A stretch of DNA of 34,926 nucleotides from Trichomonas gallinae (taxonomy: Eukaryota): NCBI GenBank assembly GCA_008369845.1, contig MRSU01010563.1, forward strand, positions 1 to 34,926, given 5' to 3'. Numbering within the stretch: the first letter of the stretch is position 1; each line of letters starts with the position of its first letter. The position numbers and the translations under genes are program-made. Positions 198 through 33,748 of this stretch are shown here, in pieces. A model generated the notes under the pieces. The model was not told the origin of the DNA and did not search any database. It saw only the letters and a list, made by a program, of their open reading frames with translations.

Positions 198-1007
198 ATG
201 GAAAAGAAAAAATTTACCAGCAAATTGGCAAGAATTATAACACCTGGCACAAATGTTGTTAAAGCCTACAAAACTTCCTCTCCACAAAGTACAGATGGTC
301 ATATTTATTTTTTATATTATGATTATTATATGCACGTAGTAAAATTCGAAAATGATTATGTAAATGTTCGAATTGGCAAAGAAAATTGCTGGATTAAAGC
401 GGATTCAATTGAAGAATTAACATTTGATGCAAGAATTATTCGTGAAACTGACATTTACTCTCAGCCGGATGAAAAATCAGAAATAGTTGCACATTTATCC
501 CCCGAAACAGACGTTAAAATTATCGATTATAATGTAAATAAATATTCGGAAATTTATTTTGATGGAAAAACCGGATTTGTTTTAGCAGACAATACAAATT
601 TCAACTTTAAGACATTTACAGGTGCGAATGATGGCGAAATTGCTGTCAAATTAGTTAGATCTAGAAAAGGTTGTGGATATGAATGGGCAATGTGCGGCCC
701 AAAGACATTTGACTGCTCAGGATTGATGCAGTGGACATATAACAGACTAGACATATTTATTCCAAGATGTAGTTTTCAACAAGCTGTATCTGGTATAATT
801 ATTAAGGATAAAAAAGATCTTTTACCAGGTGATCTCATCACATTCTATACTAATCCCCAGAAACCTGGCAAAGTTTCTCATGTTGTAATGTATGCTGGCG
901 ATGGAAAGTTTTTACATGAGTCTAGTAAATATAATGATGTAATGGAAGTTGAGTTAGATTCATATTCATATGAAATGGCAACAATGAACAGATATTGGGA
1001 TAATTAA
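198..1007 (+). CDS. NlpC/P60 peptidoglycan DL-endopeptidase with two N-terminal SH3b-like domains (bacterial-type)
   Basis: Motifs YEWAMCGPKTFDCSGL (Cys codon 714), LLPGDLITF, SHVVMYAGDGKFLHES (His 879, His 915). SH3b-like segments end in CWIKADSI and GFVLAD. First ATG is at 198; the track start at 183 is a GTG. Confidence 0.93.
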   Translation: MEKKKFTSKLARIITPGTNVVKAYKTSSPQSTDGHIYFLYYDYYMHVVKFENDYVNVRIGKENCWIKADSIEELTFDARIIRETDIYSQPDEKSEIVAHLSPETDVKIIDYNVNKYSEIYFDGKTGFVLADNTNFNFKTFTGANDGEIAVKLVRSRKGCGYEWAMCGPKTFDCSGLMQWTYNRLDIFIPRCSFQQAVSGIIIKDKKDLLPGDLITFYTNPQKPGKVSHVVMYAGDGKFLHESSKYNDVMEVELDSYSYEMATMNRYWDN

Positions 1008-1167
1008 TTAAAATCAGCGGCATGTTTCTGTTCAAAACGTCATGTTTTTTAATAAAATCTTTATGTTTATAGCAGAAAATCCATAGAGATTAGTTCGTTT
1101 TTAACCTTAAATCCTAAAAGTGACATTTTTATAAATGCAAATAAAATAATGTTTCGCGATTTAATGA

Positions 1168-1944
1168 ATAGCCAAATTTCAAAATGGGATCTTTAATTTT
1201 AGAGTTATCCATGATTACACATGTTCTATTGGTACAGAATTAAGTGAATCAAATGAAGTTGGAAATGCTTTAAATGTAAATGTTCCACAAAACACACATA
1301 TTGATATTCCATCATATGCCATATACAAAGATAGAAGTTATATTGTAACTGAAACCGCATTATTTGCTTTTCGAGGTTATTCAAATATTACTTCATTCCA
1401 TATCCCGAAAACAATCAAAATATTACGATGAGATGCATTCGCTTTCACATCTATTACAAAAATATTTATCCCAAAAACAGTTGAACAAATGTTGCGTGCC
1501 CCATTTTCTGGTTGCAAAAAATTAACTAAAGTAGAATTCGAGTTCGGTATCAGTATAACATACCTCGGCGGTGACATATTTTGGAACTGCATTAATTTAA
1601 ATTTTGTTATACTTCCAATATATATAAAGTTTACTAATAATACGTTTAAGGTTTCTAATTTATCAAAACTTTATGTATGCAATATAGATGCTGTTGAAAA
1701 TGATTTTAATCAATTTAAAAATGCATACAATATTCCTACTATATACGTGCGAAAATGTTACAAAGGCACAACATTCATGGGAAAAAGTTTCACAAGAATG
1801 ACAGAAGATTCAATTTGCTTTTACAATAAACCTCTCGAAAATACATCATACGATGATCAGTTCTTCAGCATTTTCCCATATTTAGCAATAATGCCAATCT
1901 CAACATGCATTGATCAGCAAATTTTTGTCCTTGCTTATTCTTAA
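1168..1944 (+). pseudogene. BspA-like (TpLRR) leucine-rich repeat gene with no initiator ATG and one internal TGA
   Basis: Frame 1 reads IAKFQNGIFNFRVIHDYTCSIG...YIVTETALFAFRGYSNITSFHIPKTIKILR*DAFAFTSITKIFIPKTVEQMLRAPFSGCKKL. The TGA at 1429-1431 is in frame with the track ORF 1489-1944. Confidence 0.8.
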
Positions 1945-3560: not shown

Positions 3561-4667
3561 TATCAATCATTTATGCAGATATACAAAATGATTTTAATAA
3601 AAAAAAATCATGAAAAGGATTTAAGTTATACATCAACATATAGAATAAGATTCTGATAAAACTTTCTTGCTAAAAAAAAATTTAATTTTTCCCCAAAATT
3701 CTACAGATAAGACCTATTGCTTTTATAACACGCTGGATGAAGGAATGAAATAAAGTACCATAACATTTTATACATCTTTCAACAGAATATCAAACAATAT
3801 TTATGAAATGTACAAAATTCTATCTTATTACCAAAATAAACATGGAATGATGATGTATAATGTAAAAGTCACAATAATCTTTCATACGAACCAAAAAATC
3901 TAAAAAATGCCCAATTTTGAAACAAAATATATTTGTTCACTCTAGTAACAGGTAATGATTGTTTATATTCACTGGAAATTTAATGACAAGATTGAGTATC
4001 TAAGATGGAGAACCATTCACAAAATAGGTCAACGAATGAAAATTAATTTACAATAAATCATCATCATCAAAAAGTGACATCTTCTCATTTTTCATCATTT
4101 TTAAAACTCGGGATATCACATACCATAATTGCGACACCATTATTCCTTAAAACCCCACTTTCAAATCATCAGAAACAAAAAAATTAAATAATCAACCAAG
4201 CCTCAGTTCAAGACAAAACTCAGCTGTTCTGTAACGAAATGCGGAACGAAAAGCGACAGATTTACATGTCAGATTTGACACGTAAAGTGTCCAAAAGAAA
4301 CACTATAGACAGGGGGTGCATCCATTTTGTCACTTTTCAAATGATTTTGATGCTGGATTGTGAAATAAAATACTAAACTTTTGAGATAAAGAGTTTCCAG
4401 AAATATAAGAAGATAGTATCAGCATCAGACATTGCGCCTGAAGCAAGTTGAAACTCTTTCATTTTATGACGAAGACTGGTAAGAGCGAATTCCATTTGTC
4501 TTCAGCGTGATTTAATTTATGTAAAAACAAAATTATGTCAAAAATCATATTTTTACATTTTGCAAGATTTAGAACGATTTGCCCGGGTCCAACGAAGATT
4601 CCACACTTTTATTTTGGCCATATTTGAATTCAGTACTGTGTAAAATCTATGATTATCAGACTTTTCA

Positions 4668-4931
4668 TTCCAATATGTATAAAATTTATTTCAGAGACCT
4701 TTAAGGTTTCTAATTTATCAAAGCTTTATATATGCAATATAGATGCTGTTGAAAATGATTTTAATCAATTTAAAAATACATACAATATTCCTACTATTTA
4801 CGTGCGAAAATGTTACAAAGTCACAACATTCATGGGAAAAAGTTTCACAAGAATGACAGAAGATTCAATTTGCTTTTACAATAAACCTCTTGAAAATACA
4901 TCATACGATGATCAGTTCTTCAGCATTTTCC
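4668..4931 (+). repeat. Direct 264-bp duplicate of 1613-1876 (3' part of the BspA-like pseudogene)
   Basis: Collinear and near-identical from ttccaata to cagcattttcc. It accounts for track ORF 4649-4945 (FKVSNLSKLY...DDQFFSIF). Confidence 0.95.
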
Positions 4932-5661
4932 GAGTTCAATTATAAAATCATTGATTTTATCCTATACAACTAAATATTCAATACTTTGAGCTGTAAAAAT
5001 TGCATCATATTCTTTAAAGAATATAAACTTTTCGAGGATTGAATTCATAACGTCTTTAGTTAGATTTAATTCAATATGATGAACAATTTTTTGGGAAAAT
5101 ATCAAAAAATATATTCAAGACATATGAAATAGTAGTGAAGTTGTTTGCCGAATAATTGATTAATTCAAATATTTCAGATTTTAATAATTCATCGCATTGA
5201 TTATTAGCTAAGCAAAATATGATATGCGCAATAGCTTGAAGCTGTTTCTATAGAAAATAATTTTAAATCATATTTGGAAGTGTTATGATATTTATATGTC
5301 AGCTATAATTCGTTTATGAGTATCATAAGCAAATACAAGCACTATAAAAAAAGTTAAATATATTGATGAATTGAAGATATGAGAATTATTTGCCGTATCT
5401 TGATACTATGTATTATCAAATATCCATATTTATTGAATGAATTTTTATAAAATTTTTGACGATCAACGAACACAAAACATTTGCGATCCTAGATTTTATT
5501 TCAAAAATATCTTATGTCTTGTGAAAATAATGATATTGCTTTAGAAGAATCTTAGGAATTATTCATTAGTTATTTAATTCAAAAGGTAATGAAATTCAGG
5601 TCTATTGAAATTTGATTTGATTTTTTTTTGTTGTTGTTGATCGTCAAATCATTTTTCAAGA

Positions 5662-6153
5662 ATGACTCTCTTCCTAACTAATCACACAAAGTTGTACGTG
5701 CAAATAAGGAGCGTAGAACTAGGCACATACGCTGCAACAGATAAAGCAGAATTAGTTTTATGCGTTGGAACAAAACATCACATCCATGATTATCCTTACA
5801 AATTCAAATCAGGAAATAAACATGACGTAAATCACACATGGACATTCAATATAGTTCATCCTCAGACCGGTGAGTTCTATGTTGTACTTTACAAGCACCA
5901 TTTACTTGGTGATAAAGAAATTGGTCAACTTGGCTTCTGCGTTGGCGGATTTACAAAGAATACTGTCGTTTCTAAGAAATTTATGCTACAATCAGCCAAC
6001 ATAAATGCAATGCCAGCTACAGTTGAGATGGATATTCATATTTGCGCTGATGGATCGCATGCTTTTTACGCTCCACAGGGTGAAATATCAGATAGTGCAA
6101 TCATCCAGACTTCTCATCATTTTGGTGAGCCGGAAAGCAAAATTGCTCTATAA
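5662..6153 (+). CDS. Single C2-domain-like protein, paralog of 28880-29359
   Basis: Beta-strand pattern LYVQIRSVEL...HTWTF...VVLYKHHLLGDKEIGQL. TCATT initiator at 5649; the stop codon forms TAAA. Confidence 0.75.
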   Translation: MTLFLTNHTKLYVQIRSVELGTYAATDKAELVLCVGTKHHIHDYPYKFKSGNKHDVNHTWTFNIVHPQTGEFYVVLYKHHLLGDKEIGQLGFCVGGFTKNTVVSKKFMLQSANINAMPATVEMDIHICADGSHAFYAPQGEISDSAIIQTSHHFGEPESKIAL

Positions 6154-14773: not shown

Positions 14774-14846
14774 TTTGACAATAAATCTTAATTACATGTC
14801 GAAAATGAGCGTTACGTGTCAAATTGACATAAAATTTTAAACTTTA

Positions 14847-14989
14847 CAAAATGATTCTTATTCATTGACGCGATGAATGTTATGATTATAATTACAGATT
14901 TTTATGCATTTAATGTCGAATTCACAGCCTGGTTAATAGAATTTTTATCGCAAACTAATGAAGATATTAACCATGTCAAATGCGCCTTG
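14847..14989 (+). repeat. Inverted duplicate (about 143 bp) of 13691-13834, an internal coding segment of the importin-like gene
   Basis: The reverse complement of 13691-13834 matches with about 5 substitutions and 1 indel by manual alignment. Confidence 0.95.
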
Positions 14990-15046
14990 TGTGCTGAATA
15001 TATAATATAATTTTCAGATAGTATAGAGTACTCTATACGTAAAATT

Positions 15047-16180
15047 TTACATAAAAACGAAAACAAAGACTTGAATAATCTTCATATTATGTATCTGAAC
15101 GTATTCAATTCTTCCAGTAGGATATAATGGACCTAGGTATGTGATAGCAGCTTCGCCATTTCCCGAATGGCCATTGGTGGTTATTTTAGGATTGAGGCTA
15201 GTTGGCATTGGATATTGACCATCGAGCATTTTGCCATCATGGAAGTAAAATCCTGAAAAGTGGAACATACTGTTTATGCTGTTCATGTCCGCTTCAACGG
15301 GAGAAGGAGACATACAGCCTTTGTATCCACTTATATAGGAATTTCCTCCTGCTGAAGAGGTTTCAGTTCCCCATTTCGTGGAAAAAATGGTGAAATCCAT
15401 TCCACCTCTATATCCAGACCCGCAGCCTGCTGATGATCCTCCAATATCAACGCCATAGTCCTTACCTGTGCATCCAATGCCTAGATTGCCAAAAGTTTGA
15501 GTTGCACCTAGCGATCTATCACTAACATTTTTTGATATTAGATCACCTCCATTCCCACCTTTATATAATCTATAGTGTGTGTTTATTTCGGTGCCATTTG
15601 TGGAACATGCACCACCTCCTGATCCCGCGACAATGATGCGACTTTTAATTGATTTTTGGAAAAGTGACGTAGTATTGTCAATTTTGTTCATATCATAGTA
15701 TACTAGGCGAAGATCGACTGCTCCGCCTCCACCCGCGCCACTTTCCGAAAAATTGTAGTCTCCTGTGTCTATTCCTGCATTTCCACCTCCATTCCAGCCT
15801 CCAAGGCTTCGAACGAGCTCTCCATGCAAGTATGAGGTTTGATCTTGGCCTTTCCCGCCGATGTAAAGGAAAAATTTTGTCGTAGATGGAATCCAGATCT
15901 CACCACTGACGTAAGAACCTTTTCCGCCAGAATCAGGATGCATAATTATTTCATTTTGATATCTTGCATCACCGCCTTGAGAGCCCCAAAGTTCGACAAA
16001 ATATCTGCCTTTTTGGAAAGTTACTTCGTATGGGGTGCATTTTGTAGTACTATTGCAAGGATAATTAAATACGTATTTATTTTCTCGTTTTGTAACGTTT
16101 TCTGTTCCTAATTCTTTGGAATATAGCGAATAAGTTAGCTTTGGTGTCCGTGCTGCTATACATAATACTAATATCAACAC
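15047..16180 (-). CDS. Glycine-rich (ALK/LTK-type Gly-rich domain) surface-type protein with no in-frame ATG at its N-terminus
   Basis: GRYFVELWGSQGG, GGKGSYVSG, YIGGKG, GAGGGGAVDLR, RIIVAGSGGG, GGNSYISGY; hydrophobic C-tail. The frame opens with GTG after TGA; first ATG is at 15943 (residue 80). Confidence 0.8.
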   Translation of the reverse strand: MLILVLCIAARTPKLTYSLYSKELGTENVTKRENKYVFNYPCNSTTKCTPYEVTFQKGRYFVELWGSQGGDARYQNEIIMHPDSGGKGSYVSGEIWIPSTTKFFLYIGGKGQDQTSYLHGELVRSLGGWNGGGNAGIDTGDYNFSESGAGGGGAVDLRLVYYDMNKIDNTTSLFQKSIKSRIIVAGSGGGACSTNGTEINTHYRLYKGGNGGDLISKNVSDRSLGATQTFGNLGIGCTGKDYGVDIGGSSAGCGSGYRGGMDFTIFSTKWGTETSSAGGNSYISGYKGCMSPSPVEADMNSINSMFHFSGFYFHDGKMLDGQYPMPTSLNPKITTNGHSGNGEAAITYLGPLYPTGRIEYVQIHNMKIIQVFVFVFM

Positions 16181-16410
16181 TCATGTATGTTATGGGAAGC
16201 CCATGTATTTTGAGAATAAAAATTTTTATATGTCATGTAAATATTAAATATGTCAAGTAAATAATACATTATGTTGTGTAAAATATTACATGTCAAATTG
16301 CTCAAGAAATGTAAAGAACTTAAAATTGATTTAAATCATATTAACCTATGTATGGTGTGTTAAAAATAATAAGAGTTAATTAAATATCGTTAAATTTATT
16401 TATATTACAA

Positions 16411-17373
16411 ATGGAAGAACCAGAAAGAAAGTCTCTGGTTCGATTATCAATCAATGTTGATAATGTACGAGACATTTTAACATTTCTTAATGATGAAGTA
16501 GCCAATCATTCGAAAGACATAGCAAATATCAAAAATATTTTATCAAATCTTGTTTCAGTAAAGCGATTCAATGAACTAGAAATGATGGTTACGGACTTGA
16601 ACGACAATTATTACAAGAAATTCGACGAATTATACCCAAATTATACAAATATTATGAAAGATATTGATGAACGATTTGATATGTTCCAAAAACAGATGGG
16701 ATCTACTATATCTGGCGTTTATCAAGAACTTTCAACTAGAATTGGAAAGATTGAAAAAACAATTGAACCAATGATTACAATGCAATCGAAATTAAATAAC
16801 TACGTCGATAAATTAGATAAATTACTATCAGACTCTGGTAATTTAAACTCATTCAGATCAATTATAGATTTGAATAGACGTGTAACAGCATTAGAACAAG
16901 CATTCAATCAGAGAAATAACGATCAGGATGAGTTGTTTCAGAAGTTACGTGAATTACTCGAAGCAAACGGAAATATTGAAAATTCTGATATAGAAACGCA
17001 AACGACTAGAATTAACATGTATGACGAACAGACAAATGCTACCAATAATAATAACGATTCTGATAATGATAAAAATAAGAATTCAAATTTAGATGTGTTT
17101 AATAAAGCGATGGATGATCTTAATAAACTCAATATAGACTCTAATTCACTTGATCCTAATAAAAATTGTTCTAATCAAAATGATCATTCCAAACGCGAAA
17201 ATTATAGAAAACAGATAACAAGACTTGAAATACCTGTAGAGATAGCTCACATTGCCCCTACTGCAAAGTCTTCAAGAGAAATTGGTTCATTGATGAAAGT
17301 CGTCGTATCACAAAGAAGCTCACATCCAGTGTTCAAAGCCTCTAGGAAATATCCACATAGTTCGAGGAAGTAA
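16411..17373 (+). CDS. Hypothetical coiled-coil protein
   Basis: 320-aa ORF with heptad character and an Asn/Asp-rich linker. Confidence 0.75.
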   Translation: MEEPERKSLVRLSINVDNVRDILTFLNDEVANHSKDIANIKNILSNLVSVKRFNELEMMVTDLNDNYYKKFDELYPNYTNIMKDIDERFDMFQKQMGSTISGVYQELSTRIGKIEKTIEPMITMQSKLNNYVDKLDKLLSDSGNLNSFRSIIDLNRRVTALEQAFNQRNNDQDELFQKLRELLEANGNIENSDIETQTTRINMYDEQTNATNNNNDSDNDKNKNSNLDVFNKAMDDLNKLNIDSNSLDPNKNCSNQNDHSKRENYRKQITRLEIPVEIAHIAPTAKSSREIGSLMKVVVSQRSSHPVFKASRKYPHSSRK

Positions 17374-17759
17374 GAAAAACTGCAAAATTATAATGTTTTA
17401 CAGTGAAAAATTTTATGATTCTTTACAATCGCATGTTTGTTATTATAAATCTTTGTAACTTTTTGATCCCATTTATTATTTTATATGAAATGCTTAATTA
17501 AACTTAATCAACGATAGAAATAATAACAAACACGGTTTTTTGTCTCCCACGGTCTTAATATTGTTATGTATACATTATGGTTATTTGATTATTAATGGAA
17601 TAAAGTCAAAATAATCGAAAATAAGACCGTATATTATATATGGATACTAAATAAGCTTTAAACACATGTGAAAAGGTCTAAAATTATAATAATAGAGTAT
17701 AACTTTTAAATATTTCTTTTTCAACAAACATGGTATAAAATATATAAAAAAATATAATA

Positions 17760-18929
17760 TTAGATGGAAGGGAGTTTCACAGGAACTCTTCTTCTTGATG
17801 GAGATACTATTGGTGTGTGAATTTGCGTGTGTAATGATTTTCTTCTTGCTGCTTTGAGATTTTCTGGAACAATTAAAGGTCTTACCAGGCTCTTCATATG
17901 ATATGAATCTTTACGCTCAGGAACTGGAGCTTCCTTGATGAGTAAATTATGGAAATGAGAAACAAAATAATCGCGACGAATAATACTGAACGCAGTAGTA
18001 GCATCATTTGATGCATTTGCAGCCAAATCCTTTTTAATTTGCTCATAATCGAATCCAATTTGAGCCAATGAACGAGTGAAATACAATTCATCATATTCGA
18101 ACTTTGCCAATTTCTCCTCAACATAAAGATAATGCTCATGCAGCCATGGATGATGGATGACATCATAGAGGCTGATTCTTTCTGCTGGATTCTTTGTTAA
18201 TAATTTCTTTAACAAGTCAGTTAAAAGAGGTGAAATGTTTGAAGGAATTTCTACTTCCTTGAAAATGATCTTTTGAGCTAATCTTGTCATATTTGCATCC
18301 TCAAAAGGTAAATATCCAACAACAATCGCAAACAAAACGACACCACAGCTCCATATATCGGATGAATATGTATATGGATGTCCTAAAATCATTTCTGGTG
18401 GTGCATAGGCTGGCGAGCCACATTGTGTTTTAAGAGTATTATTTTGGTCAGGTGTGTTACTTAAGCCAAAATCGATGACTCTCAAGTTCCTAGAAGCATC
18501 AAAAAGAATGTTTTCTGCTTTAATATCACGATGAGCAATGTTACACTCCTCATGTAAATAACGAATAACCATAATAAGCTGCGAGAAAACGATAGCAGCA
18601 TCAGTTTCATTTAATGTTCCATGTTCATTTATATTGTTTAAGAGTGTTCCGTTTCTTACGTACTCCATGACCAAATAATAGTTATTTGGCGTCTCAATTA
18701 CCTCGAAAAGATCGCTGATAAATGGATGGCGAGCTCTCTTGAGGAAGTTTATTTCGCGTTGGATCCTCATAAGGTGCTCATAGTCCTCTTCTGTTTCGAT
18801 ATGTTTTGGAATCATTTTGATAGCGACGTGCATTGAGCTTGGCTTGTGGATGGCAAAGAAAACATTTGCAAACCCACCTTTTCCAATTGTGCGGACTACG
18901 TTGTAGTTTGCTAAAGCTTCCTTCTCCAT
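17760..18929 (-). CDS. CAMK-group (SNF1/AMPK-related) Ser/Thr protein kinase
   Basis: GKGGFA, VAIK, HRDIKAEN, DFG, TQCGSPAYAPPE, DIWSCG. Confidence 0.96.
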   Translation of the reverse strand: MEKEALANYNVVRTIGKGGFANVFFAIHKPSSMHVAIKMIPKHIETEEDYEHLMRIQREINFLKRARHPFISDLFEVIETPNNYYLVMEYVRNGTLLNNINEHGTLNETDAAIVFSQLIMVIRYLHEECNIAHRDIKAENILFDASRNLRVIDFGLSNTPDQNNTLKTQCGSPAYAPPEMILGHPYTYSSDIWSCGVVLFAIVVGYLPFEDANMTRLAQKIIFKEVEIPSNISPLLTDLLKKLLTKNPAERISLYDVIHHPWLHEHYLYVEEKLAKFEYDELYFTRSLAQIGFDYEQIKKDLAANASNDATTAFSIIRRDYFVSHFHNLLIKEAPVPERKDSYHMKSLVRPLIVPENLKAARRKSLHTQIHTPIVSPSRRRVPVKLPSI

Positions 18930-20393
18930 AATTTTTTAAAATAAATAATATTGAATAGATAATTGAAAAAATTTAGTGTATATTTGTAAAATATAAAGTG
19001 CAGGAATGATATATGTGTAAAAATTTTGAGGCCGCCGTTTCAGGAAACTATACAAAATTTGTTCGCAGTGAAGCTATGAATTCTTTTTGTATGCATTGAA
19101 AAGTAAAACCAATCGTAAATTTTAAATATGCTAATAGACAACTAAAGGGTATTATAGTTGTTTATTCAAACCGCTAGAAAACTTTTTTTTTTGCTTTTTT
19201 TACAACTCAACTCAAAATACAGGAAACTCACCAATAACAATACGCAATCCGATGTTGCGTCTTGGCCGCGAAATTCAAATATGCTTTATTTGTTAATATT
19301 TGAACAGTTGTAATAACAAATAACATAATGTCTGCTCATTCATAATTTTCCAAATCAAATTTAATTCAACAAAAGTGACTACATTTTGTTTCGATCTCTA
19401 TTCTTGCTATGTTTACAGTTAGTTAATGCGCGTTTTTCATTTGAAAGAAAGATTTTTGATTTGAGATGATGAATACATGTTATTCCTATCATTAGGCATC
19501 AACGTATTAAAAAAATCAATTAAGCCTGATTTTTATGCTTCGATCTCAAATTTTAATTAAATTAATCATCATATTGTACCAATAAAAGGAATATCGCATT
19601 TAATTTTTAAAACTCGAATTCTCATACAATTTTGATCCGTAAAATTATTTTTGTTCGCTGATGACTTCTGTGTTCGATATATTTTATATAAACTAGAAGA
19701 GCTCATTCAAAATTTTATGTTCATCTTAAAATAATTGAAAGATGACAAAGAATTTATTTGAAAAGACTAAATTTACTTTCAATTGCAAATCTCAATATTT
19801 GTATATAATCGTGAATTAATTTTATGCTGAATAGCTCACTAAAATGAGTCAGAGGTTCAATATTGGTCGACCAAATTAAATTTTCAAAGTGATGAACAAA
19901 AATATTTACGTTTACCTTTTATGATTCATTAATGCATACATTGAAATATGCAAATAAAATAAACAACATTTTTTTCAATAACATAAAATTCAATTCAATT
20001 TTTACCCTTCCAGATTTCTCTTGCTCACCTATTATTTTCTGCATTTTTAATATTTAAAATTATTTTTATTATTTCACCGAAAAACCTTCTAAAATAATTT
20101 ATTTTTATCATTTTCATTATTTGCATTGTTATAAAAATAATTTTAAATAATCTAAAATACTTATATTTATATCTAGATTCGTTTTTACACTTTATAACAA
20201 TCTTTATTCAGTATTTCTCGTAATATCAAATAATTTTCTTTTCTGCGATTCAATGTTTGCAGCTTCCCTACGTCGCTGTGTCATACCTGTAATTTATTGA
20301 ATCTTTTCACAAGATTCGATTCTCAACCATTATAATGCTACACATGACATTTTTTTTATGAAGAAACAAATTTCAAATAAGTCTGTGAATTAA

Positions 20394-22823
20394 ATCAATT
20401 TAGTTGATAATGGACAAACACTTACATACTTTAAGGGCTCAACCACAGGTGTTACTGTTCCTGCAACTGTTCGAACCATCTATGGAAAATCAGCTACAGA
20501 TTATTGCTGCAAAGATGTAACAGATAAACTCAGAGAATGCATATTTGCAGAAAACTCGAACTTAGACACAATAGGATCTTATGCTTTTTACAATTGTTCA
20601 AAATTAGCCTCAATTGATTTTAGACCTTGCACAAAATTACGCCTAATAAAAGAATATGCTTTCCAATACTGTTCACTCTCTTCAGTCAATTTTCCAGAAG
20701 GAATAAAAGAAATACAAACATTAGCATTTTCTTTCAATAAATTACAAACTCTAAGTTTACCAGCAAGTTTAGTTACATTGGGATTTTCAGCTTTCGGAAA
20801 AAACGATTTACTTCAATCCGTAGCATTTACTCCAAATTCGTTATTGGACAGTCTTCAAGTAAATATTTTCTTTTCCAGTAGTCTAACTTCATTTATTGTC
20901 CCACCAAACGTTCAATCGATAAATGGGCTCGCATTCCAAGAGACAGGAACAATTGTGTCCATATCTGTTGATCCAGAAAATAAATATTTCAAAGACATTG
21001 ACAAAAAAGCAATTTACAACCAAAATGGAACAGCTATTTATTATTTTGCGTCAGGTATAACTGGAGAATTTACAATTCCTGAAGGAGTGTTGGAAATTCA
21101 AAAAGGTTGCTTTACTTCTTCGCATTTAACATCTCTCACGCTTCCAAAAAGCATAAATAAAGTTTATGATTTTGCTTTCATGAGGAGTTATATTACAAAC
21201 TTTAATATTGATGATTCACTCAATTCAATTGCAATTGGCGCTTTTGAATATTCATGGAATTTAATCAGCATTCAATTACCATCATCGCTCACGGAAATTA
21301 GCACGAGGTTGTTCAAATATTCAAGAATAGAATCAATTGTTATTCCAGATAAAGTCACAAAAATCGGTGATTCAGCTTTCGAATATTGCAAATATTTGAA
21401 AAATATTTCTTTACCATCAAATCTAAAAAGTCTTGGAGATAATGTTATAGCTTCTTCACCTTATGCAAAATTTATTTTCCCGCCAGACTCAGGTTTATAT
21501 GTAAGCGATGATCAACTAATTATGGATAAGCTAAATACGACAATTTATTTATATCTTGACAACAAAAACACTGTAAATATTTTACCAACAATTTTAACAA
21601 TAAAAGGTTCTGCGTTCAGAGATAAAGCAGAGTTAGTTACAATATCTTGTTCTGGTTCTCCACAATTACAAAATATTGGAGAATATGCGTTTTCTAGCTG
21701 CAAGAAACTGAAAAATTTCATTAGTTTTTCAACTTTGGCTACCATTGGAGATTATGCTTTTCAAAACACAAAAATTAGTCCTTCTCTAATTTTTGGATCT
21801 CAGTTAACATCAATAGGTGTTAATGCATTCATTGGACTTGATATATCATCAATATCTTTCAATTCTGTTAATCCTTTGACTATTTCTGATTCTGCTTTTA
21901 TGTATTGCTCGAAAATCACAGAAATACAATTTAACTGTCGGTCAGATATAAATTTAAAAAATTCCGTTTTCAGCGGTCTCAGTTCATTAAATACAATTAC
22001 TTTGTCTGACGAAATCAAAACAATTGGATCTTTCTGTTTCTCAAATTGCAGTTTAACAAGAGTCAACTTCGAATCAGCAACTTTTGGACCTGGAGTGTTT
22101 CCTCAAGGTTTATTCGCAGATTGTAAAAATCTTGAAACAATAAACATTCCGACAAACATAACAACACTCGAAAGCCAATGTTTCCAAAACAATAAACTCC
22201 GAAGAATAAGTTTGCCAGTTGGCTTATATGAACTTGGTAGACAATGCTTCAAAGGTTGCTCCTATTTATCTGAAATAATTATTCCTGACAATTGTGCATT
22301 GCAGCTGATTAATGTTGGAGTGTTTGACGGATGCACTAGTTTGTCTTCATTCAGCGATTTTGTATCTGGCTATTTTGTTGTTGACTCGGGAGCTCTTTAT
22401 AACAAACAAAGAACAAACTTGATCGTTTATCCACCAGCTTCACCAAATAATTTCTTCGCCGTTGCATTTTCTGTTACAACTATTTCAGAGAGTGCTTTTA
22501 TTGGATGCATCAACCTTCAAACGATCCTCATTCCTGATGGAAGTGTTACAAGAATTGGAAGCAGTGCATTTGAAGGCTGTAAGAACTTAAAATATATCAA
22601 TATTCCAATTTCTGTAAAAGAAATTGGCGAAAATGCTTTTTTGGGATGCAACAAACTTAACTGTGGACAAATAATTCAAAATAGAACAGTTGAATTTCGT
22701 CAAAAACTTATCCGTGCAGGCATCAATCCAAAGTCATTTAAGGACTGTGAAGTTGTTACATGCAAAGTATCATCATATACATATTTGAATGTATTTATAA
22801 TCCAGGTATTTATACTAATATAA
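20394..22823 (+). CDS. BspA-like (TpLRR) leucine-rich repeat surface protein, 809 open codons, no N-terminal ATG
   Basis: Many LxxIxIPxxVxxIgxxAFxxCxxL repeats. The frame is open from 20394 (INLVDNGQTLTYFKG...LDTIGSYAFYNCSKL). ATG 20358 is cut off by TAA 20391; next ATG is at 21180. Hydrophobic C-tail. Confidence 0.88.
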   Translation: MNLVDNGQTLTYFKGSTTGVTVPATVRTIYGKSATDYCCKDVTDKLRECIFAENSNLDTIGSYAFYNCSKLASIDFRPCTKLRLIKEYAFQYCSLSSVNFPEGIKEIQTLAFSFNKLQTLSLPASLVTLGFSAFGKNDLLQSVAFTPNSLLDSLQVNIFFSSSLTSFIVPPNVQSINGLAFQETGTIVSISVDPENKYFKDIDKKAIYNQNGTAIYYFASGITGEFTIPEGVLEIQKGCFTSSHLTSLTLPKSINKVYDFAFMRSYITNFNIDDSLNSIAIGAFEYSWNLISIQLPSSLTEISTRLFKYSRIESIVIPDKVTKIGDSAFEYCKYLKNISLPSNLKSLGDNVIASSPYAKFIFPPDSGLYVSDDQLIMDKLNTTIYLYLDNKNTVNILPTILTIKGSAFRDKAELVTISCSGSPQLQNIGEYAFSSCKKLKNFISFSTLATIGDYAFQNTKISPSLIFGSQLTSIGVNAFIGLDISSISFNSVNPLTISDSAFMYCSKITEIQFNCRSDINLKNSVFSGLSSLNTITLSDEIKTIGSFCFSNCSLTRVNFESATFGPGVFPQGLFADCKNLETINIPTNITTLESQCFQNNKLRRISLPVGLYELGRQCFKGCSYLSEIIIPDNCALQLINVGVFDGCTSLSSFSDFVSGYFVVDSGALYNKQRTNLIVYPPASPNNFFAVAFSVTTISESAFIGCINLQTILIPDGSVTRIGSSAFEGCKNLKYINIPISVKEIGENAFLGCNKLNCGQIIQNRTVEFRQKLIRAGINPKSFKDCEVVTCKVSSYTYLNVFIIQVFILI

Positions 22824-23220
22824 GAAATATTTTCACTATATTATAGTATATAAAAAATAATATGACAGCTTTAATTAATGCTTCAATATTTTCATCTGCA
22901 ATTTAATTGTTTTTGTAAAGATGCTAGATTCCACTTCCATACCTAATATCCAATAATTTGGATATTCTGGTGTGACATTCTCACCTCCATTTTGAAATAT
23001 TTAAATTATAATTCTTAATAATAATGAGGTAGCGTTTATTAATGCTTCAAAAACTATACATCTAACAATTTTTATAATTTTGATATCTAGACTCTATTTT
23101 GAAGACTTTTTAGTTGCTTTTTCTATCAATAGAGGTCATCCTTGGTCATTTAGTTTAGCAAACCTTGTGAATTGAAAAGTGACAGTTGGGATAATGATTT
23201 GTAAAAATTATGCATGATAA

Positions 23221-24147
23221 AATATAGATAATACATTAGATGTATGGAAGTATTTCTTTAAAACTAAAAATCCTGCTGTTTCAACTGGTAATAATCCCAA
23301 TATCAAATATAATGAAAATATGGATATATTATTATCATCATTTTTATATTTAACGTATCGAGCGATTGAAATAACTTCCAGTAATGTTAACTTATGTATA
23401 AGTTATTCGTCTTTCATCGATGATTCTGCAGCTACAAACGAAAATATCAGTGCAGGAGCAGTAGGAATGTCATCTGGAAAGCGCTTTTTCGTATTCAACA
23501 CAGTGTTCAGCGGCTGCCAAACATATCTAAAAAATGGAGGCCAAACATTCAGAATAACGAATGTGACAAATAAAACAGTTATCGGCGCGTCACTTTGTAG
23601 AAATGGCAAAGAATATCTGCCATCTGACACTTTACAATACAAAACCGTTTTTGTTTTTGATTACGACAATTTAGCATTCCAGGAGACAAACACATCTTAT
23701 AATGAAGTCTACGAAAAATGTTTTGGACATTTCAATTATGTCGATGGATATATTTCGTATTGCAATTTTAATAATGCAAAATCTTTTCAAAGTGGTCTAT
23801 ATTTAGTAAATGTTAGTGCAATATATACATTTTGCAATTTTATCAATAATAATATAACAAAAAACGAATTAATAAGAACTGATCTTAAAGATGTCTATTT
23901 TTTGAATTCAAATTTCAAAAATAATAATGCACCACAATATTTTAAAAGTTACACAGATAACAAAGCCATTTTGTATAGTTGTGATTCAGATAGTTATAAC
24001 AATGCTACAACTATTAATTCTTTTTCGAAAGATATGATTTTTAAAATAACATACCATGTTCATAACACTGAATGTTCAGTTTATAATGACGATATTTATT
24101 TGAATAACTACATCATTATGCTGTATTCCATTGTAATTATTCTATAA
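23221..24147 (+). CDS. Right-handed beta-helix (Pmp/pectin-lyase-like) surface-type protein, tandem paralog A
   Basis: Repeated CNFxNN/SNFKNN and AGAV/GGQ motifs; hydrophobic C-tail. Similarity to paralog B extends upstream of ATG 23320 to 23221 (NIDNTLDVWKYFF). Confidence 0.65.
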   Translation, partial: NIDNTLDVWKYFFKTKNPAVSTGNNPNIKYNENMDILLSSFLYLTYRAIEITSSNVNLCISYSSFIDDSAATNENISAGAVGMSSGKRFFVFNTVFSGCQTYLKNGGQTFRITNVTNKTVIGASLCRNGKEYLPSDTLQYKTVFVFDYDNLAFQETNTSYNEVYEKCFGHFNYVDGYISYCNFNNAKSFQSGLYLVNVSAIYTFCNFINNNITKNELIRTDLKDVYFLNSNFKNNNAPQYFKSYTDNKAILYSCDSDSYNNATTINSFSKDMIFKITYHVHNTECSVYNDDIYLNNYIIMLYSIVIIL

Positions 24148-24435
24148 TTTTTTTTTTTTCATATGTATCAATAGATGATAGAATTAAAGCATAGTGTTTG
24201 ATAAAAGTAGGAGTATTAAAGTATAAATTTATAATTTACTGATTTTATAAATGATGATTTAAAATTTGATAATTTAATATACTTGTCAATGATATAGCTA
24301 CGCCAGAATGCGATAAACTAATAATTTTTAAACAAATATATAGTCACAAATGCAGAATTTAAGGAAATAATCCAAGACAAATAATAATAAAAAGTGACAT
24401 ATTTGAATATAAAAAATGCAATTTCAACACGATAG

Positions 24436-25371
24436 AATATAGATAACGCATTAAATGTATGGGAGTATTTCTTCAATATCAGGAATGCAGCAAAAGTCAC
24501 TGGAACCAATCCATCGTTAGCATGTGAAAATTTAAATTATGATATTTATTTGTCATCATTTTTATATATATCAAATAGAGCAGTTACATTAACAACGAAA
24601 AATGCCAATCTCTGCATCAGTTATTCATCATTTGTTGGAAATTCCGTGCCGAAGGAAGATATTGAAGGTGGAGGCTCAATTTTGATGTCAAATGGCAACA
24701 ATTTTTTCCTTTTCCAAACAGTTATCACTGAATGTCTAACAGAATCAAAATCCGGAGGCCAAGCATTTAGAGTCACTGTTCCAAATAAAACGGTTATAGG
24801 TGTCACTTTCTGTCGCAACGGCAAATATTCTGAGTCATCTAAATCAATTGATTGCAGGACGACTATAGTTTACGACTATGGAATTCTTGCTTTCCAAGAA
24901 TCTAATTTCACAAAAAATGAAGTTATAGATAGATGTTTTGCGCATATTTTCTCTCTCGATGGTTATATTTCTTATTCAAATATTAATAACTGCAAATCAT
25001 ATGAATTTGGAAGTTATATCTTTAACTGCTCGCTTATATTAGTAAGCTGCAATTTCATAAATAACCAAATAGTAACAGAAGAAATATTTAGAATATTGCA
25101 TAAAGATATTTATTTTATAAATTCAAATATAAAAAATAACCAAGCATCATCTTACTTTGGATCATTGACAAATAATAGAGCATTACTATACAATTCTGGC
25201 ATTGATAATACTAATAACAATCAATATTTTGAAATTATTAATGAATATGAACTCACACAAAACTATAAAATAATTTATAAAGTTCATAAAAAACAATGTT
25301 CCAATTGTGATGTCAGCATTCATTTTAGTATGTATATTTTTATGTTTTATTCAGTTGTTTTATCTATTTAA
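24436..25371 (+). CDS. Right-handed beta-helix surface-type protein, tandem paralog B
   Basis: Collinear with paralog A (NLCISYSSF, GGQxFR, NKTVIG, CRNGK, LAFQE, DGYISY, CNFINN). The frame opens at 24436 (NIDNALNVWEYFF); first ATG is at 24685. Confidence 0.65.
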   Translation, partial: NIDNALNVWEYFFNIRNAAKVTGTNPSLACENLNYDIYLSSFLYISNRAVTLTTKNANLCISYSSFVGNSVPKEDIEGGGSILMSNGNNFFLFQTVITECLTESKSGGQAFRVTVPNKTVIGVTFCRNGKYSESSKSIDCRTTIVYDYGILAFQESNFTKNEVIDRCFAHIFSLDGYISYSNINNCKSYEFGSYIFNCSLILVSCNFINNQIVTEEIFRILHKDIYFINSNIKNNQASSYFGSLTNNRALLYNSGIDNTNNNQYFEIINEYELTQNYKIIYKVHKKQCSNCDVSIHFSMYIFMFYSVVLSI

Positions 25372-25630
25372 ATATATTATATGTCAAATAGCTGCTAAAA
25401 ATATGTTTAAAATCTTAATTTCATCATTTTCTTCTCTGTCTTCCAGCTAAAAAGTTTCTGCAACTTCTTCTTCACTTTGGATTTGATAATTCTGTATAAT
25501 ATATAACCAATCGCTGCAAAGCACCCAATCTAATATGGATCTGGTTTATAATCAACCTAGTTATATTGTATCTTATCCTATCTACGAGTTAGATTTTTCA
25601 TGATAAAAGTGAGCGTATTTTTTTTTGTAA

Positions 25631-26209
25631 ACTTACTTGATAAGAATCCTACCATCAAAAAATGGTGATTTAAACGGACTAACACTACGTTATCCAACTC
25701 TCTTTGCTTACACTGCTGATGGCGTATTTAAACCTCATTATAACATTAAATTTCTTTTTGATAGAAATAATAATAGTGAGTGGTGCTCTGCATATGCTGA
25801 TAATCAGAGCTTTTCTATATATATTGCAAATGGCGCATATATAACACCCACAAATTATACATTTCATGTTGGAGGATATTCCGATCCATATTTTGCTCAA
25901 AATTGGACTATATCTTGTTACTATAACAGTAACTGGACTATAATAGATAACGTGATTAACAATACAAGGATAAATAAAAACCATGTTGCTGAAACGTTTG
26001 AAATTTCTAACATAACAACATGTTCAGCTGTCAATTTCAGAATGAATGGATTGTCTATGTATAACGGACTAATATGGTGCATGACAACAATGGAAATATT
26101 TGGTGAAATTTCATTCGATAAAGGAATGAGGTTCTTTTGCGATACATGTAAACATGTTCCAATCTACCAAATGAAATTTAGCTACGTCTACGTCTTGATC
26201 TTGATTTAA
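25631..26209 (+). CDS. F5/8 type C (galactose-binding-like) domain protein with C-terminal hydrophobic tail and no N-terminal ATG
   Basis: LFDRNNNSEWCS, ITPTNYTF, QNWTI, WTIID, MEIFG pattern. The frame opens after TAA 25628; first ATG is at 26042. Confidence 0.65.
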   Translation, partial: TYLIRILPSKNGDLNGLTLRYPTLFAYTADGVFKPHYNIKFLFDRNNNSEWCSAYADNQSFSIYIANGAYITPTNYTFHVGGYSDPYFAQNWTISCYYNSNWTIIDNVINNTRINKNHVAETFEISNITTCSAVNFRMNGLSMYNGLIWCMTTMEIFGEISFDKGMRFFCDTCKHVPIYQMKFSYVYVLILI

Positions 26210-28300: not shown

Positions 28301-28879
28301 ATACTTATATTTACAAATAATCAAAAAATATTTTAAAAATTGATATAACTTGAAAAATTTTGCAAAAACATCAAAAGTGAATAAAATATGAAGTATCTTT
28401 CACAATTATACACAATAAACCATGTTTTATAGATCAAAATAATTTTATTTCGAAGCATTTTAAAATTAATATCATCATATTGAACAAATTTTTAGACCAA
28501 AATAATTTTGATAAATACGATTATTTTTAATTCAAATTTCAAAGTGTTTATAAATGAAGATAATGATAATCATATGATAATACTAGCTTTGCAAATCGTT
28601 GATGCACTTAATTTTGATAAATTTTGGGAAAATGGATTTATATATGATGCTAAATCAACATCTAAAATATTTTGTGATGAAAGAATTGAGAATAACCTTG
28701 AACAAATATCCCATCAATTTATTGTGAATCTCTCACAAAATATTATTTTACAAAAATTAACTCATAAAGCAAGCCATGAAACATAATACATTCGAATTTT
28801 GCTTTATTCGTCGACGAAAATTTTTCCCGTAATGATATTGAAAAAATCCAGCTTTTTGTCGACATCATTTTTATTATTG

Positions 28880-29359
28880 ATGGGAAACAGTAAGAGAGTT
28901 CTTATCCATGTCAGGGGCATTGACCTTGGCTCATATTCAGCTACTGATAAAGCTGGCTTGGTGTTGTACGTAGGTGCGCCATCAAGTTTCAAGAAATATC
29001 CATACCCATTCAAATGTGGTGATAGAAACCATATAGGTAGAACATGGGAGTATCATTATAAGGTTGACAACAACGCTTCATTTGTTATCGCGCTTTATAA
29101 GCAACATTTTCTTGGCGACAAAGAAATTGGTGAGCTAGAATTGAAGATTTCTGCATTCCAGCCAAATACTGTTATTACAGAAAGGTTTGAGCTTCAGTCT
29201 CCAAACATTGCTGCAGTTCCAGCAAGAATTGAATTAGAAATTCATCTCAACGCTGATGGATCGCAGCCATTCCAGGCTCCAAAGGGCTTCTTGTTTGATA
29301 ATCCAACAATCCTTCATCGCAATTTCTATGACAGCCCAGAGTTGAAGCTCAATAATTAA
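28880..29359 (+). CDS. Single C2-domain-like protein, paralog of 5662-6153
   Basis: Shares LGxYxATDKAxLVLxVG, YPYxFKxG, LYKxHxLGDKEIG and ADGS with its paralog. ATG 28880 follows TCATT at 28865 and matches the paralog length. Confidence 0.78.
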   Translation: MGNSKRVLIHVRGIDLGSYSATDKAGLVLYVGAPSSFKKYPYPFKCGDRNHIGRTWEYHYKVDNNASFVIALYKQHFLGDKEIGELELKISAFQPNTVITERFELQSPNIAAVPARIELEIHLNADGSQPFQAPKGFLFDNPTILHRNFYDSPELKLNN

Positions 29360-32581: not shown

Positions 32582-33748
32582 TTAGATCTTGTAGATAACT
32601 GTCTTAACGTGCTTCCTGCGCATCTTGATGAGAGCTGGAGTAATAATCTGTACGTTGAGTGATTTACGCCTCCCCGCTTTGATTTGTTCCAAAAGCTCGA
32701 GTTTTGGTAATGGTTCTGTAGCAGATTGGAGTTCCTGCTTGTTGCAGCGGACTGGCTCCTGAAATGTCATCCAATCCAAAAAATACGTCATTTGCTCTCT
32801 CTTTAAGATATTATAGGACACAGTCATTTGATTTGTGTGTCCCAATGATATCTCTTTGATAGCCGCTTCACTCTTGAAGCCAATCTTCTCCATGAAAGCA
32901 TTTAAGACGTCTTGTTTGTACTCGATCTTTTGGAGCTTCTCTGTAACAGTATTATAAGCACGATGGAGCCATGGATGTTCTATGATCTCATCTAGTGTGA
33001 TTCTCTCTTCTGGATCTTTAATGAGTAATTTTTTGATAAGATCTGCACATTCATCTGAGACATGGGCAGGAAAATCGATCTCTTTGTAAATAATCTTTTG
33101 CATGAGTTTAGTCATGTTTAGATCTTGAAATGGAAGATAACCGCATACGATAGCATAGAGTACAATGCCACAGCTCCAGATATCGCTAGAAAAATTATAG
33201 CACTTTCCAACAATCATTTCCGGTGAGGCATAAGCTGGACTCCCGCAGTGTGTGTGTAATAAGCATTCTTTGTCCGCGTAATTAGAGAGACCGAAGTCAA
33301 TAACCCTAATATTATTATGTACATCAAGAAGGATGTTCTCAGCCTTAATATCACGATGCGCTACGTTGCAGTCTTGGTGTAAATGTTTTACAGCTGCAAT
33401 CAACTGTGCAAAAAGAAAAGCTGCTTCCGGCTCTGGGAACTTGCCGAATCTGTTTATAGCAGCTAGGAGTGTTCCTTGTTGGCCATGTTCCATTACAAAA
33501 TAGAAATTTTCTGGAGTTTCAACAACTTCAAACAATTCAGCGATAAATGGGTGCTTGACCATCTTGAGGATATCCATTTCGCGCTGGATACGGACCATTT
33601 GCTTGCCATCTTCGTTATTAGCGTATTTTGGAATAATTTTGATTGCGACATTAGCGCCAGTGAGATTATGCATGCCGTGGTATACCTTCGCGAATGAGCC
33701 TTGTCCAAGGTGGTAGTTAATTGAATAGTTAGCTAATGTTTCTTGCAT
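32582..33748 (-). CDS. CAMK-group (SNF1/AMPK-related) kinase, paralog of 17760-18929
   Basis: GQGSFA, VAIK, HRDIKAEN, DFG, THCGSPAYASPE; shares the RRKSL tail. ATG at 33748 follows a TCATT initiator and aligns with the paralog start. Confidence 0.96.
   Translation of the reverse strand: MQETLANYSINYHLGQGSFAKVYHGMHNLTGANVAIKIIPKYANNEDGKQMVRIQREMDILKMVKHPFIAELFEVVETPENFYFVMEHGQQGTLLAAINRFGKFPEPEAAFLFAQLIAAVKHLHQDCNVAHRDIKAENILLDVHNNIRVIDFGLSNYADKECLLHTHCGSPAYASPEMIVGKCYNFSSDIWSCGIVLYAIVCGYLPFQDLNMTKLMQKIIYKEIDFPAHVSDECADLIKKLLIKDPEERITLDEIIEHPWLHRAYNTVTEKLQKIEYKQDVLNAFMEKIGFKSEAAIKEISLGHTNQMTVSYNILKREQMTYFLDWMTFQEPVRCNKQELQSATEPLPKLELLEQIKAGRRKSLNVQIITPALIKMRRKHVKTVIYKI

Follow-up and report, generated by a model that had tools for sequence, protein, structure and literature searches.

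A C-terminal tail shared by unrelated protein families of Trichomonas gallinae and its possible role as a sorting signal

Five genes with a common type of C-terminus

The window analyzed here comprises 34,926 nucleotides (nt) of contig MRSU01010563.1 from Trichomonas gallinae (assembly GCA_008369845.1), and its region 15047–26209 harbors five genes whose products end in the same type of short, hydrophobic C-terminal tail. The five C-termini quoted in an original prediction on this DNA are all present in the sequence, each directly before a stop codon. One gene is located on the minus strand (15047–16180) and represents an open frame of 377 codons, the product of which is an ALK/LTK glycine-rich-domain protein (PF12810, E 1.9e-43). 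Its tail (15047–15121, minus strand) is a Cys-less variant, PTGR ... IIQVFVFVFM followed by the stop, and reaches a score of 3.7 with a position profile of glycine-rich homologs, by which the window tails score 2.2–8.5. The other four genes are encoded on the plus strand. The frame at 20394–22823 (809 codons) codes for a BspA-type leucine-rich-repeat protein (PF13306, E 1.4e-140), and its tail (22755–22823, profile score 8.5) contains a T-C-K motif, the protein ending with V-T-C-K and 18 further residues, all of which are uncharged (19-residue hydropathy 1.47). The frames at 23221–24147 (paralog 1, 308 codons) and 24436–25371 (paralog 2, 311 codons) belong to an unnamed family without Pfam match and are arranged in tandem, with 49% identity; because two of the five genes are tandem paralogs, they represent four independent families rather than five. 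The tail of paralog 1 (24070–24147; E-C-S ... IIMLYSIVIIL) shows the lowest of the five profile scores, 2.2, and that of paralog 2 (25294–25371; Q-C-S-N-C ... IFMFYSVVLSI) scores 4.3. Structure prediction for paralog 2 yields a beta-helix or solenoid (mean predicted local distance difference test score 69.7; residues 274–311 below 50), in which the tail is predicted with low confidence as a separate helix past a linker (residues 293–310), and a structure search with this model returned beta-helix and solenoid proteins as top matches, at low template modeling (TM) scores. The last frame (25631–26209, 192 codons) codes for a protein with a weak F5/8 type C (discoidin-like) domain (PF00754, E 0.0035, under the curated cut-off) and ends in a tail with a T-C-K motif (26141–26209, profile score 6.3); a homolog search with this protein gave one relative, and its identity to P0241 over the whole length is 92%. 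Named homologs stem from T. vaginalis G3, with 37% and 43% identity for the first-ranked two, and region 15047–26209 is also covered by contigs about 94% alike from a relative in a bird metagenome (run X1); no RNA run is among the sequencing runs listed for it.

All five window tails pass the hydrophobic-end rule, with hydrophobic-end scores of 2.3–3.2, whereas none of the 14 other open frames of at least 130 amino acids (aa) in the window reaches a score of 2.0, the maximum being 1.4. Among 1253 spurious AT-rich frames ended by a stop, the share scoring as high as the window tails is 0.000–0.045. A hydrophobic end by itself is frequent in these spurious frames (208 of 1253, 76 of them with a Cys in addition), and the evidence therefore lies in the recurrence and spacing of the tail rather than in any single example.

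Conservation of the tail across homologs and families

Among the 120 glycine-rich homologs listed, 95 run past the domain, 79 of these with a hydrophobic end, while 8 stop at the domain, the end of which was not located by pattern in 17. The tail consensus is [T/S]-C, followed by about eight polar or basic residues and about eleven hydrophobic residues up to the stop. In the 78 glycine-rich tails passing a stricter rule, a Cys is found at positions -30 to -14 in 63 cases, compared with 18.7 expected from the composition of the protein body. Of 89 tails, 73 contain a Cys, with T or S as the preceding residue in 42 cases, and the distance of this Cys to the end is narrowly distributed (median 20 residues, quartiles 19–22). 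As a correction to the original prediction, the glycine-rich gene of the window carries P-T-G-R without any Cys, and T-C-K is present in only two of the five window genes. In the family of the two paralogs, all five full-length homologs contain a Cys 20–26 residues from the end and three of them pass the hydrophobic-end rule. The tail is retained among homologs that are only 30–50% identical.

The tail is an addition on the eukaryotic side of these domains, as bacterial homologs of the glycine-rich domain lack it. Among 78 metagenome loci fetched, the bacterial-type ones stop at the glycine-rich domain or run into other domains, some with a helix-plus-basic end, and six are of eukaryotic type, three of which have a complete tail, while two break off within it and one ahead of it. 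A search with the C-terminal region of BspA retrieved, among the best 120 of 1147 matches, long BspA proteins of mostly bacterial type, as judged from length and Pfam make-up, and no trichomonad tails, so that the case for BspA tails is built on the window gene and on published T. vaginalis sequences (PMC2843621).

The sharing of the tail between families was assessed with the position profile, which was trained solely on 105 glycine-rich homologs (the 120 listed minus 8 bacterial-type and 7 truncated ones). The ten tails of the other three families show a median score of 5.0, compared with -6.9 for 45 control eukaryotic open reading frames (ORFs; Mann-Whitney p=1.6e-6), -5.7 for the 1253 spurious AT-rich frames and -7.5 for 390 bacterial ORFs. 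The hydrophobic-end rule combined with a Cys is passed by 8 of the 10 cross-family tails, but by only 2 of the 45 control eukaryotic and 1 of the 390 bacterial ORFs; two of the ten, P0243 and P0245, score near zero with the profile. Two of these ten tails are near-duplicates and seven come from a single family, so that they amount to three independent tests. A tail profile had been suggested as a check beforehand, and the outcome supports the claim of a shared tail on unrelated domains, now specified as a eukaryote-specific add-on to domains of extracellular type. The four unrelated folds or families very probably share a genuine signal, and neither Pfam nor NCBIfam contains a family describing it.

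Orientation of the tail-bearing domains

An excess of N-x-T sites was reportedly put forward by Cui et al. in 2009 as a mark of passage through the endoplasmic reticulum (ER). In the 89 tail-bearing glycine-rich homologs, N-x-T occurs at 1.73 times the frequency expected from shuffled sequences, while N-x-S is not raised; the factor is 1.92 in 50 full-length homologs without a signal-peptide-like start, 2.22 in the five paralog-family homologs, and 0.94 in 28 bacterial copies of the glycine-rich domain. The sites are spread over 78 alignment columns, and a 1.32-fold excess is still observed after removal of the ten most shared ones (p=0.007). N-glycosylation operates in T. vaginalis trafficking (PMC8717582).

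Judged by a hydropathy rule, a signal-peptide-like start is present in 3 of 56 full-length glycine-rich homologs and absent from the other 53, among them P0009 and P0012, both full-length T. vaginalis proteins; the first residues of database homologs are gene-caller choices. Likewise, four rows of Table S1 in PMC2843621 list T. vaginalis BspA proteins of the [TS]CK subfamilies without a predicted signal peptide. Signal peptides are present in loci L021, L032, L033, L038, L073 and L075, and three of these (L021, L038 and L075, from a second eukaryotic lineage) combine an ATG start, a signal peptide, the glycine-rich domain and a hydrophobic tail in a lumen-facing layout. Two genes adjoining glycine-rich genes of that lineage, L021:10813–11808 and L038:11120–12277, also code for products with a signal peptide, a hydrophobic end and no Pfam match, which are candidates for further tail carriers.

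As judged from these sequence features, the carriers appear to pass through the ER even when they lack a signal peptide, and a lumenal or surface orientation of the tail-bearing domains is probable. The suggestion that the signal may work without an N-terminal signal peptide is thereby strengthened by the rarity of such starts together with the N-x-T excess. The window genes themselves are uninformative in this respect, because none has an in-frame ATG at its conserved start, and the glycine-rich frame even opens with the hydrophobic stretch VLILVLCIAA, encoded on GTG/TTG codons.

Comparison with known C-terminal signals

How trichomonads display surface proteins without a transmembrane helix or a glycosylphosphatidylinositol (GPI) anchor has been a standing question since the genome work of 2007–2010. 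Noël et al. (2010) described T. vaginalis BspA proteins (TvBspA) lacking a transmembrane domain (TMD), with conserved Cys motifs ([TS]CK, SCHIA and TCQCR) 20–30 residues before a hydrophobic end, and proposed an atypical anchoring by unknown lipids, because the enzymes of GPI synthesis were absent (PMC2843621). The core idea of a lipid anchor is therefore not new, being already in print for the [TS]CK tails of TvBspA. The BspA gene of the window conforms to this description, with a [TS]CK-type motif, a hydrophobic end, a PF13306 match and no called TMD. Common to both cases are the Cys motif at 20–30 residues from a hydrophobic end and the variable presence of a signal peptide; in contrast, the accessible parts of that paper describe such C-termini for BspA alone, whereas three more folds and homologs from other sources are added here, together with the N-x-T evidence. 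A preprint on BspA/Pmp proteins covers TMD-bearing members, as far as its accessible part shows (10.1101/454884). The lineage-wide C-terminal signal is very probably real, known in outline for BspA and here extended to unrelated families, and the sharing over families and the N-x-T excess are what is new relative to the literature found. The search of the latter gave no report of a tail shared across families nor of any test of the motif; it covered few subscription papers, and the alignment supplements S6 and S7 of PMC2843621 may show more.

The tail shares with GPI attachment signals a small-residue site, a polar spacer and a hydrophobic end without cytosolic tail, all of this on unrelated ectodomains. 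This resemblance, pointed out in the original prediction, holds for the layout but not for the detailed rules. GPI signals consist of an omega site, a spacer of 8–12 residues and a hydrophobic tail of 15–20 residues (PMC9098846). The small omega residue (A/C/D/G/N/S) would be provided by the Cys in 73 of 89 tails, but with this Cys as omega, A, G or S occupies the omega+2 position of just 13 of the 73 tails (36 when T, C, N and D are also counted), and the tail is shorter, with a median of 20 residues in total after the Cys and a longest run free of charged or amide residues of 11 in the median. In addition, a signal peptide appears to be missing in most members, and the pathway is reported to be absent from T. 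vaginalis, as the original prediction had pointed out and as PMC2843621 indeed states; a literature search on this point added nothing.

The prokaryotic Cys-CTERM systems also use a short C-terminal Cys-motif module on unrelated surface proteins, and MYXO-CTERM is cleaved in a manner depending on its Cys (PMC11980579; bioRxiv 2023.06.07.544157), its lipidation being predicted. These systems are characterized by a Cys that is invariant, a complete transmembrane helix and a C-terminus rich in Arg, none of which is strictly found in the trichomonad tail: the Cys is present in 73 of 89 tails, transmembrane length in 13 of 89 and a basic end (at least two basic residues among the last five) in 4 of 89, and no NCBIfam model matches. 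The likeness is thus an analogy rather than a homology. Tail-anchored proteins and the CAAX-prenylated BspA of Entamoeba similarly carry their membrane signal at the C-terminus, do without a signal peptide and have a Cys close to the end, but the hydrophobic segment of the trichomonad tail is mostly too short for a tail anchor (median 19-residue hydropathy 1.14, at least 1.6 in 13 of 89), and prenylation at a CAAX box does not apply, with a Cys at position -4 in 1 of 89 tails and the trichomonad Cys about 20 residues from the end.

Possible function of the tail and alternative explanations

The tail may serve as a parabasalid C-terminal sorting signal for ER entry and subsequent surface anchoring via a lipid on the Cys instead of GPI, a reading that we prefer but hold tentatively, at somewhat below an even chance. 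The domains would then face the ER lumen and the outside of the cell, and those members that have no signal peptide would be targeted by the tail itself, which would be recognized post-translationally. Lacking a cytosolic stop-transfer charge and the length needed for a stable transmembrane helix, the hydrophobic end would hold the protein at the membrane transiently and would be cut off near the Cys, after which the Cys or the new C-terminus might gain a lipid, as proposed for bacterial MYXO-CTERM. The idea of a transient handle arises from a tail that is mostly too short for a helix, has no basic end, is not of the CAAX type and misses the omega+2 and length rules of GPI signals. Cleavage combined with a lipid is, by analogy with GPI and MYXO-CTERM signals, a possible outcome that falls just short of being the probable one.

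Several observations weigh against this reading. Fifteen of the 78 glycine-rich tails, as well as that of the window's glycine-rich gene, have no Cys at -30 to -14, and the tails of L021, L038 and L075 lack a Cys upstream of their hydrophobic end. The uncharged run of the glycine-rich tails has an upper quartile of 17 residues, so some tails could cross a thin membrane uncleaved. Paralog 2 of the relative (P0242) is called as a protein of 192 aa with a stop before the tail. The homologs entering the counts are not independent of one another; the N-x-T factor of the five window genes is 1.48 (p=0.037) compared with 1.25 in 12 controls, and that of the BspA gene is 0.97, compared with 1.31 in bacterial BspA matches. 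Finally, a search for identifiers or names of T. vaginalis homologs in supplementary files of a single phagolysosome proteome study gave no match.

The main rival, which we regard as unlikely, is an uncleaved minimal membrane anchor, with the domain outside, the last 14–20 uncharged residues staying in the membrane and the Cys either S-acylated or engaged in disulfide dimers. It would account for the Cys-less variants and is consistent with the length of the uncharged run (median 14, quartiles 11–17), with the 18 uncharged residues after the T-C-K of BspA and with the helix predicted at low confidence over residues 293–310 of paralog 2. However, 76 of 89 tails remain below a 19-residue hydropathy of 1.6, compared with 2.69 in the conventional C-terminal helix of L075. 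S-acylation by DHHC enzymes takes place on the cytosolic side of the membrane, whereas the Cys of the tail would be lumenal. According to a review, T. vaginalis has DHHC enzymes, and its S-acylated proteins number at least 363 (PMC12733157), which favors the anchor. In the opposite topology the proteins would be tail-anchored, the large domain would lie in the cytosol, and the juxtamembrane Cys beside a basic residue would be palmitoylated. This would fit the 53 of 56 full-length homologs without a signal peptide, and Lys, which is found more often than any other residue behind the Cys (13 of 73), would match the positive-inside rule. This topology is nevertheless improbable in view of the indirect argument of the N-x-T excess, the extracellular type of the domains, the co-occurrence of signal peptide and tail in L021, L038 and L075, and the shortness of the hydrophobic segment.

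Slightly less probable still is an ordinary GPI attachment signal served by a trichomonad pathway too divergent for recognition. Its small residue, polar spacer and hydrophobic end without cytosolic tail are in place, and Cys is permitted as an omega residue (PMC9098846), but apart from the 13 of 73 tails with a small omega+2 residue behind the Cys, any omega/omega+2 pair at all is found in only 27 of 89, the roughly 20 residues after the Cys contrast with the 8–12 plus 15–20 of GPI signals, and T. vaginalis reportedly has no gene for any GPI enzyme (PMC2843621). The least favored explanation, which we consider highly improbable, takes the tails as by-products without any sorting role, in which decaying genes read on into AT-rich sequence at their ends. 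The 208 of 1253 spurious frames with hydrophobic ends, the lack of normal starts in the five genes, the tail-less paralog 2 of the relative and the many transcribed pseudogenes of T. vaginalis (PMC4223856) speak in its favor; it is opposed by the fixed Cys-to-end spacing, the Cys excess, the cross-family profile, the retention of the tail at 30–50% identity, and the listed codon differences between the glycine-rich gene and that of the relative, 16 of which are synonymous and 14 non-synonymous. If the tail is a sorting signal, its sharing by unrelated families reduces the problem of surface display to a single testable module of 25 residues. The profile could help to predict the surface proteome, and processing by an enzyme would offer a parasite-specific pathway for study.

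Missing start codons of the tail-bearing genes

None of the five tail-bearing genes has an in-frame ATG at its conserved N-terminus, although the frames are intact. The first in-frame ATG is found at codons 34–263, compared with the first 21 codons in the 14 other long frames (p=8.6e-5), namely at codon 80 in the glycine-rich gene, 263 in the BspA gene, 34 and 84 in paralogs 1 and 2, and 138 in the F5/8 gene, and the segments upstream of it consist of conserved domain sequence. In the listed pieces of the relative's contigs, these upstream parts are free of indels over 1539 nt, whereas non-coding DNA contains six indel events over 789 nt (p=0.0015). Moreover, 15 of 17 T. vaginalis G3 homologs, most of them with accessions from two assemblies, are annotated from an internal Met, and P0256, which is 98% identical to one T. 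vaginalis homolog, shows the complete N-terminal domain within an open frame that has no Met at the start position of the family. Random decay would be expected to strike mostly in the gene body, with an estimated 2–10% per gene for the start being hit first.

Non-AUG starts, unseen 5' exons and recent pseudogenization are the candidate explanations. A special start mechanism is opposed by the case studies of Woehle et al., in which alternative start codons are not used according to the authors (PMC4223856), by the early stop of paralog 2 in the relative, and by the BspA frame, from which an in-frame ATG at 20358 is separated by a single TAA. Paralog 1 may start at Met 34, which is common to six of seven aligned family members, and former coding DNA is less prone to indels than intergenic DNA. 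The literature searched contains nothing on non-AUG starts in Trichomonas. An intron as source of the missing starts was rejected, as no match to the branch-point/3' splice consensus occurs upstream of any of the five frames, as was a silent-cassette model, no common 5' junction element being present among the 20 listed of 57 direct repeat families. The known M2 motif AAAGTGAC has 16 sites in the window compared with 1.1 expected (including 1117, 8436, 23176 and 24391) and lies 45 nt upstream of both paralog frames, yet ordinary genes have upstream copies too. The missing start codons suggest that many such genes are mis-annotated from an internal Met, unusually expressed or silent. A more far-reaching and quite doubtful extension would be that parabasalids exchanged GPI for a sortase-like system of their own, in which one Cys-bearing signal directs ER entry, cleavage and lipid attachment by a dedicated enzyme for many families, and that its carriers in Trichomonas may start without AUG or take their 5' end from elsewhere.

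Other features of the window

Further genes of the window include a peptidoglycan hydrolase of the NlpC/P60 type that has a bacterial SH3 domain (198–1007, plus strand); for T. vaginalis, hydrolases of this kind are listed among lateral acquisitions (PMC6299479). A gene that looks BspA-like by eye but has no Pfam match and carries an in-frame TGA near 1429 (1165–1944, plus strand) recurs as a 5'-truncated near-copy (4649–4945, plus strand); both copies are probable pseudogenes, and the end has the look of a degenerate tail. Dispersed paralogous pairs are represented by unnamed genes at 5662–6153 and 28832–29359, C2-like by eye and without Pfam match, and by Ser/Thr kinases at 17760–18929 and 32582–33748. 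Immediately upstream of a gene for a 999-aa protein, positions 14792–15010 form an inverted repeat of part of its coding sequence, a plus-strand frame at 14855–15010 resembling residues near 320–365 of the product. In the interval that separates the divergently oriented glycine-rich and coiled-coil genes, positions 16227–16266 are the sole match of several run X1 contigs, which then diverge, this segment being a short element with further copies in the genome.

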